Of a stretch of DNA of 64,000 nt, positions 23,231-46,545 are shown piece by piece. Position numbers and translations under genes: made by a program. The stretch's first letter is position 1; every line of letters starts with the position of its first letter. Below the pieces are notes generated by a model that saw only the letters and a list, made by a program, of their open reading frames with translations, ran no database searches and was not told where the DNA came from. Source of the DNA: Candidatus Shapirobacteria bacterium (GTDB taxonomy: Bacteria; Patescibacteriota; Microgenomatia; UBA12405); the NCBI GenBank assembly GCA_028704635.1, contig JAQWFB010000002.1:693-64692 (forward strand), given 5' to 3'.

Positions 23231-23536
23231 ATGAATATTCAGATCAAAGGTGTTAACTTAATTATTTCCCTAAAGATCCGCAAGATGATCAACGACAAAT
23301 TTGTCGACAAGCTTGATAAGCTTCTTCCCCAATTTAACAACGAGCTAAAAACCGCCTTTCTTCGCATTGAAAAAGATAAAAGATACAAAGATTACACTGT
23401 CCAGTTCGACATGACTCTTCCCGGCCAAAAAAATAGTTTTCATGCTGAAACTAAACATCATGAACTAGAGGCTGCCACAGTTGATTTACGTGAAGCCATT
23501 GAAAAACAAATTAAAAAATATAAACACGCCGATTAA
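23231..23536 (+). CDS. hpf: Ribosome hibernation promoting factor (RaiA/HPF, short form)
   Basis: 101 aa S30AE-family sequence (ITVRHMELT-like core, HAETKHHELEAA). Confidence 0.75.
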   Translation: MNIQIKGVNLIISLKIRKMINDKFVDKLDKLLPQFNNELKTAFLRIEKDKRYKDYTVQFDMTLPGQKNSFHAETKHHELEAATVDLREAIEKQIKKYKHAD

Positions 23537-23586: not shown

Positions 23587-23772
23587 ATGTCTGCAACAAA
23601 ATCTAAAAAAACACCACGAATTTTAATCGCCCTCGTCTGTTCAGTCTGTGGCGCTCAAAATTATTTAACTGAAAAAAATAAAACCAATACTCCTGATAAA
23701 CTAAAATTTACCAAATACTGTCGTTGGTGTAGAAAGAAAACTGAACACAAAGAATCAGCAAAATTAAAATAA
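23587..23772 (+). CDS. rpmG: 50S ribosomal protein L33
   Basis: CSVCGAQNY...CRWCRKKTEHKE zinc-ribbon L33 pattern. Confidence 0.8.
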   Translation: MSATKSKKTPRILIALVCSVCGAQNYLTEKNKTNTPDKLKFTKYCRWCRKKTEHKESAKLK

Positions 23773-23782
23773 AATATAAATT

Positions 23783-23808
23783 TGTAGGGGCGGACCATGT
23801 GTCCGCCC
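23783..23808 (+). repeat. REP-family variant palindrome tgtaggggcggaccatgtgtccgccc plus T-run, acting as rpmG terminator
   Basis: Shares tgtaggggcg...catg...cgccc frame with copies at 12275, 59011, 59094. Confidence 0.65.
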
Positions 23809-23818
23809 TTTTTTGTAT

Positions 23819-24736
23819 ATGAAACAACAGATTCAGTCAGCCCTAGAAAACATCTACATTTCTCCCTTGGAATTATGTAATTTGAATTGTCGCGCCTGCT
23901 ACACCAATAAAACTAAAAATATTCTTTCTAATCAACAAATTCTCGACTTCGTCGAAAAATATAATAGATTTTTAAAAAAAGATTTCAAAGATACAATTTT
24001 TTATGATATCGAACGTGGTGACACATTCGCCGAGCATAAAAAATTTGTATCGAGAAATCTAAAATTAAAATCTATTCTTTTTTGTGGTGGCGAAGTCTTC
24101 ACTCTCCCTGATTTCCCCGATTTAATCAACACTTTGATCCAAAAAGACATATTTATCACCATTATTACTAACGGCACCATCGACTGTATCAATAAAATCA
24201 ATGATCCAAAAAATTGTCAGCTCTTAGTTTCACTCGACGGTCCCAAAGAAATTCACGACCGAAATCGTGGTCCTGGTAATTTTGATAAAACAATAAAATT
24301 TATTCAACACGCCCAACAACTTGGTTTCCCAATCGAAATTATGTTTCTCATTACCAAAGATTCCTATCCTTACAAAGGTTTTTTTAATGTTTTTGGTCTG
24401 CCAAAAACCTATTTAACTGATCGAAAAATGTCATTGTCAAAAAATCAACTTTTAGATATCAAAAAAAATTATCAAACCTTCCCAAATAAAAATTTTGGCT
24501 GCTCTCAACTCTCGCTTCAATCCTCCGGCATCATCACCGGCTGTTGTGAATCTTCCCTACGATTAGGCACAATTAATGATGATCCTGCAACTTATGTCGC
24601 CAATTTTATAAAATCTTTGTCCAAATGTTCCATTTGTCAAAAATGTAACGGTTGTTGCGACCCCAATTATCTTTGTGGTTACAAAACCGAATTAAATCTC
24701 AAAAATTGCCAAGATGTTGTACAATCATTCAAATGA
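23819..24736 (+). CDS. Radical SAM enzyme with C-terminal SPASM/twitch-like Cys cluster (start at MKQQ)
   Basis: CNLNCRACY (CxxxCxxC) at residues about 22-30. GGE SAM motif. C-terminal CSICQKCNGCCDPNYLC cluster. Stop overlaps next start (ATGA). Confidence 0.75.
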   Translation: MKQQIQSALENIYISPLELCNLNCRACYTNKTKNILSNQQILDFVEKYNRFLKKDFKDTIFYDIERGDTFAEHKKFVSRNLKLKSILFCGGEVFTLPDFPDLINTLIQKDIFITIITNGTIDCINKINDPKNCQLLVSLDGPKEIHDRNRGPGNFDKTIKFIQHAQQLGFPIEIMFLITKDSYPYKGFFNVFGLPKTYLTDRKMSLSKNQLLDIKKNYQTFPNKNFGCSQLSLQSSGIITGCCESSLRLGTINDDPATYVANFIKSLSKCSICQKCNGCCDPNYLCGYKTELNLKNCQDVVQSFK

Positions 24737-25743
24737 ATTTTCAAACCCAATTTATTAAAGAATGGACAGTTCAAGCTTTGCGAAATTATTTTATTGATAA
24801 TAATTTTCATGAGGTCGAAACTCCAACTCTTCTTGCCAAAATCCCCATCGAACCAAATCTCTACGCTTTAAAAACTCATTGGTCCCAAAAAGATTTTGAT
24901 TTTTATTTACCCACCTCACCCGAGTCTTCACTCAAAAAATTAATTTCTCAAGGCATTGGTAATTGTTTTGCCATCAGTAAAGTTTTTCGAGATTTAGAAG
25001 ATATCGGCCCCACTCACAACCTCGAATTTGCCATGTTGGAATGGTATGAAATGGACAAAAATTATCGCAACATCGCCGAAACCACCCAAAAATTAGTCTT
25101 AGAAATTTACCACAGTATCCTTAAAAAACAAAACAAAAGCATTACTAATTTACTCACCTACCAAAATCAAACCATCAACCTTTCCACTCCTTGGTATTTT
25201 TTCACTCTTCAAGAATTATTTCAAAAATTTGCCAACATCGATTTGTCCAAAAATTTAACGACCAACGAAATTATTGCCACCGCCAAATCAAAAGGTTACA
25301 ACACTGATGGTATTACCACCTGGGAACCGCTCTACACTCAAATTTTTATCAATGAAATTGAATCTAAATTACCTCAAGACAAACCAGTCTTTATTTTAGA
25401 TTATCCCACTCAACTTTCTCCTCTTTGCCTCCCCTGTCCCAATAATCCAGGTTTCAGTCAACGATTTGAATTTTATATCGGTGGCATGGAAATCGGCAAC
25501 GCTTATTCTGAATTAAACGATTCAAAAATTTTAACAGACAATTTTGAAACTGAAACCAAATTTAGACGAGATAATAATTTACCAATTCATCCCTACGATC
25601 AAGAATTTATCGATGCCTGCGGTCAACTTCCTACCTGTGCCGGCATCGGTTTAGGTGTCGATCGTCTGGCTATGCTTTTCGCCGACACTACTCAAATTGA
25701 AGATGTCATTTATTTCCCCACTTCAAAATTTATTGAAAATTAA
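24733..25743 (+). CDS. EpmA/GenX/PoxA-like class II lysyl-tRNA-synthetase paralog lacking anticodon-binding domain (start at MNFQ, ATGA-coupled to rSAM)
   Basis: Class II motifs LEFAMLEWYE, RFEFYIGGMEIGNAYSELND, GIGLGVDRLAMLF closely matching E. coli EpmA. 336 aa. Confidence 0.7.
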   Translation: MNFQTQFIKEWTVQALRNYFIDNNFHEVETPTLLAKIPIEPNLYALKTHWSQKDFDFYLPTSPESSLKKLISQGIGNCFAISKVFRDLEDIGPTHNLEFAMLEWYEMDKNYRNIAETTQKLVLEIYHSILKKQNKSITNLLTYQNQTINLSTPWYFFTLQELFQKFANIDLSKNLTTNEIIATAKSKGYNTDGITTWEPLYTQIFINEIESKLPQDKPVFILDYPTQLSPLCLPCPNNPGFSQRFEFYIGGMEIGNAYSELNDSKILTDNFETETKFRRDNNLPIHPYDQEFIDACGQLPTCAGIGLGVDRLAMLFADTTQIEDVIYFPTSKFIEN

Positions 25744-25924
25744 TATTTATTCAGTACAATATAACTAATATGAGTCGATCAACCACCAGAAAAGTAGCCA
25801 CCGACAATCGATCAACCATCGTCAAAGGCTTCGTTAAACCAGAAATACCAAATTTCCCCGGCAATAAATCCACTTCTGGCTTTAAACCAGGAGCTAGATT
25901 TCAAACCATCAACCGCGGCCGTCG

Positions 25925-26269
25925 TTAATCTTTGATTTTTTCTTCAATCAATTTATCAATCCAATACATTTTTTGGACTCCATTTTCCAGTCTAAAATAG
26001 TGGAAAATATAAGGCACTAATAAAATCAATAAAAGAAAATCAATTGTAATTAAAATTACAAACTGATAAACCAAACTGAACATTATCGATACCATAAATA
26101 AAATTCCAAAAGTTAAAGTCACTAATAAATGAATCAACCGTTCATGTTGCATAAATTTTATTGTTTCCCTATGATTTTCCAATACCTCATTCCAATTCTG
26201 ATTCTTCCCGTCCTTTATTTTTCTATTAATTTCCTTTAAATATTGATTCAAAAAATCAATCATAATCAA
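25925..26269 (-). CDS. Hypothetical membrane protein (114 aa)
   Basis: Two predicted TM helices. 4-nt overlap with upstream HAD gene. Confidence 0.45.
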   Translation of the reverse strand: MIMIDFLNQYLKEINRKIKDGKNQNWNEVLENHRETIKFMQHERLIHLLVTLTFGILFMVSIMFSLVYQFVILITIDFLLLILLVPYIFHYFRLENGVQKMYWIDKLIEEKIKD

Positions 26270-42599: not shown

Positions 42600-43472
42600 T
42601 CATTTACACAAAGGGCACTTATCACCAGAATAATAACAATCACATTTTTCACAATGTTTCAAACCATCAACATTTCCTAGTCCGTAAACCAACTCTCCAT
42701 TTATACCCACTGACACAATTATTCCCATTCTATTATTTTCACTTCCCCAAGAACTTCCATGCCCCCCTTCAGTATTAATTTCATTCCCCATTCTTGCCAT
42801 TAAGCTTTCAAATAAATAATTATCACCATCTGCTCTTTCCATGGCCATTCTTACATCTTTTTCCATTTTTATTTTATTTTCAGTATCCTTACCTTCCTCA
42901 ATAAAATCCCAAATTTCCATAAACTCAGGCATTATTTTTTTACATTCATATATCCAATCATCAATCTCTTCAATCCTAAATCCTATCGGTTGTTGCCTTA
43001 CGCTTTCCTTATTATTAATTGAACCTATAGATTTTCCATTATTTTTTAACAATCTCTTAGCCAATTCAAACGATTCATTTTCATCACAAAGCAAGGGAAC
43101 ATGTCTCCCATAAACCACCCATTCATTTTTTCCAAAAACAGGAAATTCTATATTCAATCTTCCCTCTTTGTAAACATTTCCACCATCATCAGGACTTATC
43201 CAAACAATCAAATTGTATCCCTTTTTACCTAAATCAAAAACATTAATTGTTGCTTCTTTTTCTGCTTCTGAATGTTTATTATATTCCCAATTATCTTTTT
43301 CTATTTTACTTTCTACATAAAGATCTGAAATATTTATTCTATTTCTTAAATCTAAATCATTAGCCCTCTCCTCCAAAAACGCTCCTGCAATTTCACTAAG
43401 AGAATTTTGATTAATATCGTAAAACTTTTTATTTTCTAAATTCATATACTTTTGCTCGAAAGTTTTGGTCAT
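42600..43472 (-). CDS. Hypothetical protein with C-terminal zinc ribbon (HCEKCDCYYSGDKCPLC), last gene of nrd operon
   Basis: 290 aa ORF. CxxC...CxxC terminus. Co-directional with nrdJ and ATR gene. Confidence 0.5.
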   Translation of the reverse strand: MTKTFEQKYMNLENKKFYDINQNSLSEIAGAFLEERANDLDLRNRINISDLYVESKIEKDNWEYNKHSEAEKEATINVFDLGKKGYNLIVWISPDDGGNVYKEGRLNIEFPVFGKNEWVVYGRHVPLLCDENESFELAKRLLKNNGKSIGSINNKESVRQQPIGFRIEEIDDWIYECKKIMPEFMEIWDFIEEGKDTENKIKMEKDVRMAMERADGDNYLFESLMARMGNEINTEGGHGSSWGSENNRMGIIVSVGINGELVYGLGNVDGLKHCEKCDCYYSGDKCPLCK

Positions 43473-43534
43473 CCGGCTCTACGGTTGCGGCACAGCCTAG
43501 GAATTACACCTAGTTCCCCATTAATAATTATTTT

Positions 43535-44035
43535 TTAATTAAACTTTGACCTCCACATCCAATTTAAAAAGGATGATAATTTATTAAAATATTTCAATAC
43601 ATTTTCATCAAATTTCTCTTTTTTCTTTTCTTCTCTATCCCATTTTAAAGTCACCACCCTCCTTTCCGCTTCTCGACAATCAGTTCGACAAATATTAATT
43701 CTCGATTCAACTTCATTTTCACCAGGTATTAAAAAATCGTTTAAATCCTTAACTCTTTTTTCATATTCTTCCGAATCACTTTCTATTTCTTCAATTCTTT
43801 TCTCTCCGTTTTTCCAATCTTTACCAACATAAAGACTACTCATAATTTCATTTAAATCTTTTTCTATTTGAAGAATTTTTTCATTTTCTTCTTTTTCCTC
43901 TATCACCACTCTAGTCCACCCCAACCGGGCCTGAAACTTATCAATCGCTCCAACTGCTTCCACAAAAGGAGAATCTTTACTCACACTTAAATTGCATTCT
44001 CCTGATGTAAAACCTTTATCTCCTCTTTCACTCAT
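43535..44035 (-). CDS. PduO-type ATP:cob(I)alamin adenosyltransferase (MMAB family)
   Basis: N-terminus RGDKGFTSG...VSKDSPFVEAVGAIDKFQARLG matches TGDKGxTSL..VxKDDxRVEAxGxxDELN signature. Confidence 0.6.
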   Translation of the reverse strand: MSERGDKGFTSGECNLSVSKDSPFVEAVGAIDKFQARLGWTRVVIEEKEENEKILQIEKDLNEIMSSLYVGKDWKNGEKRIEEIESDSEEYEKRVKDLNDFLIPGENEVESRINICRTDCREAERRVVTLKWDREEKKKEKFDENVLKYFNKLSSFLNWMWRSKFN

Positions 44036-44040
44036 ATTTT

Positions 44041-46545
44041 TTAACTACATTTACTATAACCACAAAACTCATTTGTACATTTAAAACAGCCCTCCTCAGC
44101 TCGAAGTGGACTACCGCAATCTGGACAAGAAAGTACTTTACTTTCCATAACAGCTCGTTCAACTCTAATATTTTCCAATGCTGTTGTATCGATTGAATTT
44201 TTTTCGCAGGCAAACATATCTAATTGTTCACCCCGTGAAATTTCCAAAAGCGATTTCCCAACTGCATCAAACATACTCAAAACTGTCCCATTTCCTAAAC
44301 CAATTTTTTGGCCACATGAAATTCCTACTAAATTATCAGCAATTTCATCTAAACCAGCCCCATATTTTAACGATAAAGAAGCCAATCGACCAATAGCCTC
44401 AGCCGCCCCAGCCATAAATCCACCACTCTTCCCCAAGGTCACGAATACCTCCACTGGACCATCACCCGCTTCATAAAAAATTGAAGTGTAGACACTCCCC
44501 AAATCACATTTCTTTTTTAATCTCACCCCACGAGCCATTACTGGTGTTTCTTTTTTCTTTGGTGGCAAAACTACAACCTTTTCTTCAGTTGTTTCTTTTT
44601 CTTTAACTTTTGACATTGGCTCAAATGACCTTGAACCACTCCTATAAATAGTAATACCCTTAGTTCCTAAAGCATAAGATTTTAAATAAGCCTCCCTAAC
44701 ATCATCAACCGTTGCTTCCTCTGGTAAATTAATTGTTTTTGAAACCGCATTATCAGTATATTTTTGAAAAGCCGCCTGAATTCTAATATGCCATTCTGGT
44801 TCAATTTCCAAGGCTGTAATAAAAACTGATTTCAAATCTTCAGGAATTTCTTCCACTCCTTTCAAAATTCCTCCATTTTTGACAATTTTTTCAATCAATT
44901 CTTCGGAATAAATTTCTCTCCTTTTTAATTCATCAACTAAAGTTGGATTAACACTGTAAAGAGTTTTTCCTTCAACTGTGTTTTTTTGATAACCCAAAGA
45001 AAATACTGGTTCAATTCCTGAACTGGTATCAGCCAACATACTAATCGTTCCAGTTGGAGCAATCGTCGTTAAAGCCATATTTCTTGGTTTGTAATCAGTA
45101 TTAGCAAAAACACTCACATCCCACAAAGGAAAAGTTCCTCTGGTTTTAGCCAATTCACAAGTTGCCTCCCTAGCCGATTCAGTTACAAACTTCATTATTT
45201 TTCCTGCCCATTCAATCCCTTCCTCCGAATCATATCTCACCCCCAATTTAAATAATGCATCAGCAAATCCCATCACCCCAACCCCAATTCTTCTAGTTTT
45301 ACTTACCATATCCCTAATTTTTTGAACTGGAAATTCATTTACTTCCACCACATTATCCAAAAAATGCACTCCAATTCTAATAGTTTCTTTTAAATCTTCC
45401 CAATTAATGTCGCCCTTTTTAAGGGAGATGTCAGCACCAGCTGACAGAGGGTTTTGTTTTACAAACTTTGCCAAATTAACACTCCCTAAATTACAAGCAT
45501 CATAAGGCAAAAGTGGTTGTTCTCCACAAGGATTAGTAGCTTCAATTCGACCAATAGTTGGGACTGGATTTGAAGTTGAGTCGTTCATTCTGTCTATAAA
45601 AACTAAGCCTGGATCACCAAATTGCCAAGCCAATCGTGTTACTAAATTAAATACTTTATAAGCATTCAATTTCATCGCCACCTCACCTGTTCTTGGGTTA
45701 ATTAATTCATACCCTTCCCCTTCTTGGCTGGCAATTGCCCAATCGTATAATTTTTTAACTCCAGCCTCAATATCTCTCAACCTTCTTTCGACATTTCGAT
45801 CTTCCTCCGCGTTTTTTATTTCCTCAATAACCTCTTCTGGAATCGAATCGTCAGTCACAAATTTTTTATCAATTTCAATTCTCTCCATAAACGCATTCGT
45901 CACCGCCAAGGAAATATTGAAATTAGTCAAACTCCATTCATCTAATTTAACCACTGCAAATCTCAACACATCAGGATGATCAATTGACAACATTCCCATA
46001 TTTGCTCCACGTCGCACTCCACCCTGTTTAATTTGAGCCGTCACATCATTATAAGCCTGCATAAAACTAACCGGTCCAACCGTAGTTCCACCACTCGTTT
46101 TAATATAATCACCACTTGGTCGTAATCGAGAAAATGAAAAACCCGTTCCACCACCACTTTTGTGAATCATAGCCATATTCGACATGGTTTCTAAAATTGA
46201 TTCCATCGAGTCATCAATTGGCAACACGAAACAAGCTGATAATTGTTGATGTGGTTTGCCTGCATTTATCAAGCAAGGCGTATTGGGTAAAAATTTTTGT
46301 TCCGCAAATAATTGATAAAAAGTCTTGGCTTGTTTTTCGATTCCTTCATCATTTATTCCAAAAAATCTATCCCCTTTAGCCACATTAGTCGCCACTCTCC
46401 AAAAAATATCTTTAACTGTCTCATATGGTTTACCGTCTTCACTTTTTCGTGAATACCTAGTTTCAGCAATATATTTGGCATTCGCTGAAAGCTTTGGCTC
46501 CATTAGTTCACCACCACTAATATTTTGTCTTGATGTATCTGTCAT
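44041..46545 (-). CDS. nrdJ: Adenosylcobalamin-dependent (class II) ribonucleotide reductase
   Basis: 834 aa. Class II RNR core (NPCGEQPL, thiyl-Cys region). C-terminal zinc ribbon CPDCGS...CFKC. Confidence 0.9.
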   Translation of the reverse strand: MTDTSRQNISGGELMEPKLSANAKYIAETRYSRKSEDGKPYETVKDIFWRVATNVAKGDRFFGINDEGIEKQAKTFYQLFAEQKFLPNTPCLINAGKPHQQLSACFVLPIDDSMESILETMSNMAMIHKSGGGTGFSFSRLRPSGDYIKTSGGTTVGPVSFMQAYNDVTAQIKQGGVRRGANMGMLSIDHPDVLRFAVVKLDEWSLTNFNISLAVTNAFMERIEIDKKFVTDDSIPEEVIEEIKNAEEDRNVERRLRDIEAGVKKLYDWAIASQEGEGYELINPRTGEVAMKLNAYKVFNLVTRLAWQFGDPGLVFIDRMNDSTSNPVPTIGRIEATNPCGEQPLLPYDACNLGSVNLAKFVKQNPLSAGADISLKKGDINWEDLKETIRIGVHFLDNVVEVNEFPVQKIRDMVSKTRRIGVGVMGFADALFKLGVRYDSEEGIEWAGKIMKFVTESAREATCELAKTRGTFPLWDVSVFANTDYKPRNMALTTIAPTGTISMLADTSSGIEPVFSLGYQKNTVEGKTLYSVNPTLVDELKRREIYSEELIEKIVKNGGILKGVEEIPEDLKSVFITALEIEPEWHIRIQAAFQKYTDNAVSKTINLPEEATVDDVREAYLKSYALGTKGITIYRSGSRSFEPMSKVKEKETTEEKVVVLPPKKKETPVMARGVRLKKKCDLGSVYTSIFYEAGDGPVEVFVTLGKSGGFMAGAAEAIGRLASLSLKYGAGLDEIADNLVGISCGQKIGLGNGTVLSMFDAVGKSLLEISRGEQLDMFACEKNSIDTTALENIRVERAVMESKVLSCPDCGSPLRAEEGCFKCTNEFCGYSKCS

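Follow-up and report, generated by a model that had tools for sequence, protein, structure and literature searches.

What do a radical S-adenosylmethionine (SAM) enzyme and a synthetase-like ligase do together when their genes share bases and recur side by side? This question is raised by a locus of Candidatus Shapirobacteria on contig JAQWFB010000002.1, of which a stretch of 64,000 nucleotides was analysed; we refer to this stretch, at its full length, as the window, and count positions from its first letter. The ligase resembles EpmA of E. coli, an enzyme that modifies elongation factor P (EF-P), the protein that rescues ribosomes stalled at polyproline. Based on the conservation of the pair, the residue at the substrate gate of the ligase and the position of relatives of the pair beside efp, we lean towards the view that the two genes form a cassette that modifies the lysine at the tip of the EF-P loop in place of canonical EpmA/EpmB.

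A conserved gene pair and its two enzymes

The two genes and their principal features are as follows.

23819..24736, + strand: radical-SAM gene (305 aa), twitch/SPASM class, Pfam Radical_SAM E 1.2e-14
23876..23899, + strand: CxxxCxxC cluster motif CNLNCRAC (C20, C24, C27), Cys kept in 78/78 family members
24500..24709, + strand: C-terminal Cys-rich region, C228 to C297, presumed site or sites of auxiliary Fe-S clusters, from Cys conservation
24733..24736, + strand: ATGA overlap, ligase start on radical-SAM stop, caaATGAatt at 24730-24739
24733..25743, + strand: EpmA-like ligase gene (336 aa), Gly-gate subfamily, Pfam tRNA-synt_2 E 4.8e-50
25648..25650, + strand: GGT codon of G306, the counterpart of E. 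coli EpmA A298 in a pairwise alignment

Gly-gate and Ala-gate denote ligases with glycine or alanine at the position of A298. As stated in a preliminary description of this DNA, the ligase ATG (24733-24735) shares bases with the radical-SAM TGA (24734-24736), an arrangement that would couple the translation of the two genes, and the motifs quoted there (CNLNCRAC, CSICQKCNGCCDPNYLC, LEFAMLEWYE, RFEFYIGGMEIGNAYSELND and GLGVDRLAMLF) are all found in the translations. The window has a G+C content of ~33%, and close homologues of both proteins are named Candidatus Shapirobacteria or Patescibacteria group.

Species-representative genomes were scanned with a profile of the radical-SAM protein alone, which yielded 80 loci (numbered with an L below), mostly from Candidatus Shapirobacteria. 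By tblastn, the ligase adjoins the radical-SAM gene in most of these loci, and where it is missing the contig usually ends; by a stricter count based on open reading frames (ORFs), 60/80 loci have a ligase at most 1.5 kb away from the radical-SAM gene. The radical-SAM proteins of these loci are 36-82% identical to that of the window. The pairing is far beyond chance, and the recurrence in related genomes that had been suggested as a check is thereby established. Many of the pair-bearing records (L001, L003-L006 and others) bear the title 'uncultured Gammaproteobacteria' or 'Pseudomonadales', and one that of Methanoperedens; their genes are 50-82% identical to Shapirobacteria genes and stand in the same order, and such titles look like placeholder or wrong taxonomy. 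Two distant radical-SAM members, with 36-38% identity to the window protein, are found in other surroundings: that of L077 (4204-7341) is followed by a PfkB-type kinase and an adenosylhomocysteinase-like gene, and that of L079 (9986-12134), in a complete genome labelled TM6, by a multi-pass membrane protein.

The ligase is matched by Pfam tRNA-synt_2 over residues 12-331 of its 336, keeps the Arg residues of class II motifs 2 and 3, and can be aligned with lysyl-tRNA synthetase (LysRS) over LysRS residues ~176-490 only, so that it has no anticodon-binding domain. Its best family model is the EpmA model TIGR00462, at 262.3 bits under a cut-off of 286.9. A further EpmA model, NF006828, gives 227.9 bits under a cut-off of 264, and the ligase also stays below the cut-offs of the LysRS models NF001756 (241.6 vs 468 bits) and TIGR00499 (223.1 vs 427.6 bits). 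Six other Gly-gate ligases score 237-278 bits, all below the EpmA cut-off, and three Ala-gate ligases of Patescibacteria clear it with 316-339 bits. The earlier statement that the ligase aligns closely with E. coli EpmA holds in that the alignment is full-length (E 2e-40), but identity is just 27%, and in pairwise phmmer comparisons LysRS catalytic domains score higher (158 bits) than the solved GenX/EpmA chains (118-127 bits).

The relationship is clearer in a neighbour-joining (NJ) tree of 129 ligases, covering all loci and E. coli LysS and EpmA, with 200 bootstraps. Ligases without an anticodon domain are split from LysRS in 200/200 bootstraps, and those associated with the radical-SAM family are monophyletic in 165/200, nested among Ala-gate EpmAs. 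A truncated LysRS was rejected on domain content and tree position, in agreement with the initial assignment of the second protein to EpmA rather than LysRS. By sequence, the ligase is a diverged branch of the EpmA clade, distinct from canonical EpmA. With E. coli EpmA (YjeA/GenX/PoxA), the EF-P-(R)-beta-lysine ligase, it shares the class II core, motifs 1-3, the lack of an anticodon domain and the clade, and relatives of it are encoded beside efp; unlike that enzyme, it has Gly at the A298 gate, falls below the NCBIfam cut-offs and has a partner that is not EpmB.

This partner belongs to a very small family, with 24 clusters at E <= 1e-30 among 1.84 billion representatives, in which no radical SAM-ligase fusion was found and members do not exceed 450 aa. 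Its CxxxCxxC motif begins at residue 20, and the 19 residues that precede it leave no N-terminal domain and no space for a peptide-recognition domain (the RRE), which is absent from the protein. Across 78 family members, C20, C24, C27, C89, C228, C242, C243, C279 and C286 are universal and the GGE motif (G90-G91-E92) is invariant, while C270, C273, C276 and C297 occur in 58-67%. Because only five C-terminal cysteines (C228, C242, C243, C279 and C286) are universal, the conserved core resembles a twitch domain with a single auxiliary cluster; in the Shapirobacteria type, the extra cysteines would suffice for a putative second one. The C-terminus had been called SPASM-like, a label that is not backed by a profile, as the Pfam SPASM model gives no match at E <= 0.1. 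The best NCBIfam match is a generic twitch model (54.6 bits vs a cut-off of 170), no Pfam or NCBIfam subfamily reaches its cut-off, and the family is not represented by a model in NCBIfam release 20.

An AlphaFold2 model of the radical-SAM protein, built from 24 homologues (predicted local distance difference test 78, predicted template-modelling score 0.81), places it among the twitch/SPASM enzymes. The top Foldseek matches to the predicted model are SkfB, anSME, SuiB, EpeE and BlsE, with structural-match figures of 17.4 for SkfB, 16.6 for SuiB, 16.1 for anSME, 16.0 for BlsE and 15.9 for MoaA; KamA (2a5h, lysine 2,3-aminomutase) is far lower, with 9.3 at rank 31. The closest folds thus include enzymes that act on proteins or peptides (SkfB, SuiB, anSME, EpeE) and on small molecules (BlsE, MoaA, BtrN). 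The protein is 15-20% identical to these enzymes, has no N-terminal peptide-recognition domain and, with 305 aa, is smaller than those top matches that are two-cluster SPASM enzymes (364-440 aa). E. coli EpmB (L081) matches it by BLASTP over the cluster motif only (E 0.13), and no PLP (pyridoxal phosphate)-binding domain was detected in it by Pfam and NCBIfam scans. The initial view that the partner is not a KamA-type enzyme is upheld by this lack of full-length homology to KamA or EpmB. The PLP-dependent EpmB (YjeK) and Clostridium KamA nevertheless offer a parallel, since in the pair, too, the gene of a radical-SAM enzyme is coupled to that of an EpmA-type ligase and, among relatives of the pair, to efp.

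Gate residue and linkage to efp

In the pairwise alignment, G306 of the ligase stands opposite A298 of E. coli EpmA (PTCAGIGLGVDRL vs PDCSGVALGVDRL), and LysRS likewise has Gly at the equivalent position. A298 has been described as a 'backbone-selectivity gate', and the exchange A298G flips the preference of EpmA from (R)-beta- to (S)-alpha-lysine (bioRxiv 10.64898/2026.07.07.736966). Gly occupies the gate in 61/62 ligases encoded beside the radical-SAM family, and Ala in 40/40 loci that were sampled through the ligase, have both flanks visible and contain no radical-SAM gene. The remaining radical-SAM-adjacent ligase, that of L061 (9917-11867), is the sole one with an Ala gate (CSGIAIGIERL); it lies inside the Gly-gate clade of the NJ tree, a position that suggests a secondary reversion.

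The rest of the lysine pocket is conserved. The positions that we take, from LysRS structures, to contact lysine are the Glu of SPE, the Glu and Tyr of LEWY, the Asn of IGN and the Glu of SEL; these Glu, Tyr and Asn positions are retained in the ligase alignments, and variation is limited to the aromatic lid (Y, N, D or F). From the Gly gate we therefore predict that the donor is an alpha-amino acid with a lysine-type side chain, not (R)-beta-lysine, and a donor of this kind would need no 2,3-aminomutase. A beta-lysine-making role of the radical-SAM enzyme is unlikely because of the same residue, and its fold and the absent PLP domain agree with this.

Relatives of the pair are found directly beside efp. 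In L072 the order is radical SAM, ligase, efp, which is repeated in L166, while in L073 efp is divergent from the radical-SAM and ligase pair. The EF-P loop reads [FH]VNPGKGSAF in all three loci, with Lys at the tip. The EF-Ps that are 81-100% identical to that of L072 reveal two states of the slot directly upstream of efp: one holds the radical-SAM gene and a Gly-gate ligase (L072, L166), and the other an Ala-gate ligase with no radical-SAM gene (L082, L167, L172). This natural exchange is the sharpest of the observations that connect the pair with EF-P. The two types of ligase in this slot are ~39% identical, and downstream of efp both states continue with the same methyltransferase gene, followed by PAP2 and Lon where the contig reaches that far.

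To sample the wider linkage of the ligase, metagenomes were scanned with an alignment of ligases that had an Ala-gate sequence at its head; this gave 80 loci. Counts by gate, limited to loci in which each flank is visible over 1 kb or more, are as follows.

Ala-gate loci (n=40): beside radical-SAM family 0; beside efp 34; KamA-type EpmB within 6 kb 6
Gly-gate loci (n=2): beside radical-SAM family 1 (L108); beside efp 1 (L110, no radical-SAM gene); KamA-type EpmB 0

Every EF-P encoded next to a ligase has a G-K-G loop tip, which is part of PGKG in all except L110 (AMGKG). A KamA-type gene is nearby in 7 Ala-gate loci, and none was found in the window or in 1.06 Mb of radical-SAM-bearing loci. 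Pfam scans of 20 neighbouring or large ORFs of the window found no LysRS, EpmB, EpmC or EarP-like gene; the same 20 ORFs encode a malic enzyme, dCMP deaminase, a nucleotidase-like protein, topoisomerase, a penicillin-binding protein, ribonucleotide reductase and Mur/Ddl ligases.

Three further observations concern the surroundings of efp. In L110 (2691-4342), where the EF-P loop is RAMGKGSAF and not xPGKG, a 365-aa Gly-gate ligase gene overlaps the 3' end of efp, and this ligase is sister to the radical-SAM-associated clade in the NJ tree. A SAM-dependent methyltransferase (Methyltransf_11/25) is encoded directly 3' of efp in the Patescibacteria clade, with either ligase type upstream (L072 6679-7353; L082 6612-7193; L167 2193-2801; L173 988-1533), and may be a further EF-P-related enzyme. 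A YggS-like PLP-binding protein (Ala_racemase_N, 220 aa) is encoded between an Ala-gate EpmA and efp in L084 (4253-6588) and L174 (2822-5159), where the three genes overlap or nearly abut, and it may be linked to beta-lysine supply.

Proposed role and rival explanations

We propose that the Gly-gate ligase would attach an alpha-amino acid, most simply L-lysine, to the conserved lysine of the EF-P loop, and that the radical-SAM enzyme would take a hydrogen atom from its substrate by means of a 5'-deoxyadenosyl radical. Read most simply, the two genes would stand in for an Ala-gate EpmA whose EpmB is encoded elsewhere in the genome. In the version that we prefer, the radical-SAM enzyme would tailor the side chain of the lysyl-lysine bound to EF-P, in a role like that of EpmC but by anaerobic chemistry. 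Alternatively, its substrate would be free lysine, and the ligase would attach the unusual alpha-amino acid made from it. On-protein tailoring is slightly favoured because proteins or peptides are the substrates of several enzymes with the closest folds; the Gly-gate ligase of L110, which suggests that such a ligase can work alone, was also counted towards it. Taken further, and only tentatively, on-protein tailoring might amount to a fourth EF-P route in Shapirobacteria-type Patescibacteria, in which the ligase would add L-lysine and a twitch-type radical-SAM enzyme would rework the protein-bound lysyl-lysine without oxygen or PLP, for example by epimerisation, dehydrogenation or formation of C-C or C-N bonds. 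We know of no radical-SAM enzyme that acts directly on EF-P.

Known systems supply parallels to both versions. EpmC (YfcM), the beta-lysyl-EF-P hydroxylase, requires O2 and belongs to an unrelated protein family; under on-protein tailoring it would have the same finishing role, and the radical-SAM enzyme would be its oxygen-independent counterpart. EpmC is an optional last step, present in a subset of bacteria (PMC12856214). The substrate-supply version shares its logic with pyrrolysine synthesis by PylB and PylC. PylB, a PLP-independent radical-SAM enzyme, rearranges L-lysine into an uncommon alpha-amino acid, and PylC joins this product to the epsilon-amine of another lysine. The 5-aminopentanolylation of B. 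subtilis (ynbB, gsaB, ymfI, yaaO, yfkA, ywlG) is also a lysine-type modification and is assembled stepwise on EF-P, but it involves no EpmA-type ligase. YfkA, too, is a radical-SAM enzyme; the 25 best NCBIfam matches listed for the protein studied here do not include the YfkAB family model. In Bacillus subtilis, yfkA affects the level of EF-P modification (PMC5885033).

It should be noted that several observations weigh against this proposal. No efp was found in the 64-kb window by tblastn with E. coli EF-P or by blastp with EF-Ps of Patescibacteria, and the Shapirobacteria loci likewise have none within 10 kb of the pair; for the window genome, we infer EF-P as the target through homology to three loci in other Patescibacteria, and the loop sequences, too, come from relatives. 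The gate rule comes from mutants of E. coli EpmA and is extrapolated over ~27% identity, the Ala-gate sample is biased towards relatives of one Ala-gate query, and the L061 ligase has an Ala gate although it adjoins a radical-SAM gene. The two enzymes are also not strictly bound to each other, as no ligase adjoins the radical-SAM gene of L077 and L079, and in L110, where a Gly-gate ligase stands beside efp, there is no radical-SAM gene for 4 kb around. As to the chemistry, the evidence is compatible both with on-protein tailoring and with substrate supply, and the precedents EpmB/EpmA and PylB/PylC both put the radical-SAM enzyme on a free amino acid.

Explanations that dispense with EF-P, or with a common function of the two genes, draw on the immediate neighbourhood of the pair, where the gene order on the + strand is hpf, rpmG, radical SAM, ligase.

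23231-23536, + strand: hpf, Pfam Ribosomal_S30AE and NCBIfam match
23587-23772, + strand: rpmG, Pfam Ribosomal_L33 and NCBIfam match
23786..23810, + strand: terminator-like hairpin and T-run in the gap between rpmG and the radical-SAM gene, 10-bp stem with 7 G-C pairs
25733-25760: promoter-like site ahead of the 52-aa ORF, 10/12 match
25770-25928, + strand: 52-aa ORF, pI 12, no Pfam or NCBIfam match

The hairpin ends 8 nt upstream of the radical-SAM ATG and may act as a step-down of expression from the ribosomal-protein gene into the enzyme pair; several related loci differ from this hairpin-spaced arrangement of the window in that their matches to rpmG and the radical-SAM gene overlap.

The neighbours hpf and rpmG, correctly named in the preliminary description, make it conceivable that the pair modifies L33 or HPF and not EF-P. 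The two genes are upstream of the pair in most of L001-L076, in the order seen in the window, and many loci have an rpmG match that overlaps or abuts that of the radical-SAM gene. However, this synteny is limited to one lineage, and eight loci have the pair without hpf and rpmG (L042, L068, L072, L073, L078, L080, L108, where it is beside pyrG, and L166). In the window the terminator-like hairpin parts rpmG from the pair, and the ligase clade is otherwise tied to efp. We consider such a target unlikely and judge hpf and rpmG to be lineage synteny, probably context only, rather than functional partners; the earlier argument from their presence to a translation-related role does not hold. The adjacency might, on the other hand, lack a shared function, with the ligase alone lysylating EF-P and the radical-SAM enzyme active in an unrelated pathway, and here L110, L077 and L079 are the supporting cases, each with one gene apart from the other. 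This too is improbable, as the adjacency persists over 36-82% identity, in several contexts and with an overlapping stop and start, and the presence of the radical-SAM gene tracks both the gate residue and a monophyletic branch of ligases.

A distinctly unlikely explanation keeps EF-P and changes the chemistry: the radical-SAM enzyme would be a non-orthologous lysine 2,3-aminomutase that feeds beta-lysine to an EpmA orthologue, so that a different enzyme leads to the EpmAB product. The two-enzyme logic is that of EpmB/EpmA, the pair takes the place of EpmA upstream of efp, and its loci contain no KamA-type gene. Against this, the gate of the partner is Gly, which in E. coli EpmA turns the preference away from beta-lysine, and the radical-SAM protein has no detected PLP-binding domain, while the radical-SAM 2,3-aminomutases (lysine, glutamate, arginine) all require PLP, as far as we know. 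Maturation of a RiPP (ribosomally synthesised and post-translationally modified peptide), in which ligase and radical-SAM enzyme would act on a small precursor such as the product of the 52-aa ORF, appears very unlikely. This very basic ORF is just 3' of the ligase gene and conserved in 20 loci, where its C-terminal motif F[KR]PxxR[FM][QG][ST]INR[GS]RR is strong, and the maturases SkfB, SuiB and CteB are among the nearest structural relatives of the radical-SAM protein. Yet it occurs in one subclade (20 of ~75 pairs), is not found in L108, L072 and L166, and has its own promoter-like site; moreover, the 19 residues ahead of the cluster motif leave no peptide-recognition domain, and there are no transporter, protease or immunity genes nearby. 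As the sole conserved small ORF, confined to a subset of loci and with a promoter-like site of its own, it is an unlikely precursor. The preliminary description had offered a non-orthologous EF-P route and a peptide-modifying pair as alternatives, and of these the efp linkage and the exchange in the slot upstream of efp favour the former, while the latter is weak.

Other features of the window and significance of the pair

Two features of the window lie outside the pair. The GC skew is -0.29 over positions 1-64000, and the strand bias is extreme: skew at third codon positions is -0.57 in genes on the + strand and +0.66 in genes on the - strand, so that the + strand is strongly G-poor regardless of gene orientation. 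An AdoCbl-II (adenosylcobalamin) riboswitch (43458-43535, - strand; 43.9 bits vs a gathering score of 36.5) stands ahead of an ORF at 42600-43472 (- strand), just downstream of the gene for the large subunit of ribonucleotide reductase (44041-46545, - strand).

Known routes of EF-P modification are beta-lysylation, rhamnosylation and 5-aminopentanolylation, besides unmodified forms (PMC12856214, a review; PMC12931083, a research paper; both January 2026), and our literature search found no paper that describes a radical-SAM/Gly-gate ligase pair. The pair is probably an EpmA-type EF-P modification system with a different gate and a different, uncharacterised radical-SAM partner. We regard it as a new variant of the EpmA-type route because it is absent from the literature searched, has no NCBIfam model and includes a ligase that scores below the EpmA cut-off.

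If this proposal is true, a further EF-P route would exist in a large uncultured radiation with minimal metabolism, and it would consist of just two genes, both open to expression in E. coli. The pair also presents, in nature, the Ala/Gly exchange by which engineers switch EpmA between beta- and alpha-lysine, here tied to the gain of a radical-SAM gene, which bears on how paralogues of aminoacyl-tRNA synthetases change substrate. No curated model covers the small radical-SAM family, and its reaction may be new chemistry on protein-bound or free lysine; were the fourth route to hold, the adduct on EF-P would be a new structure.

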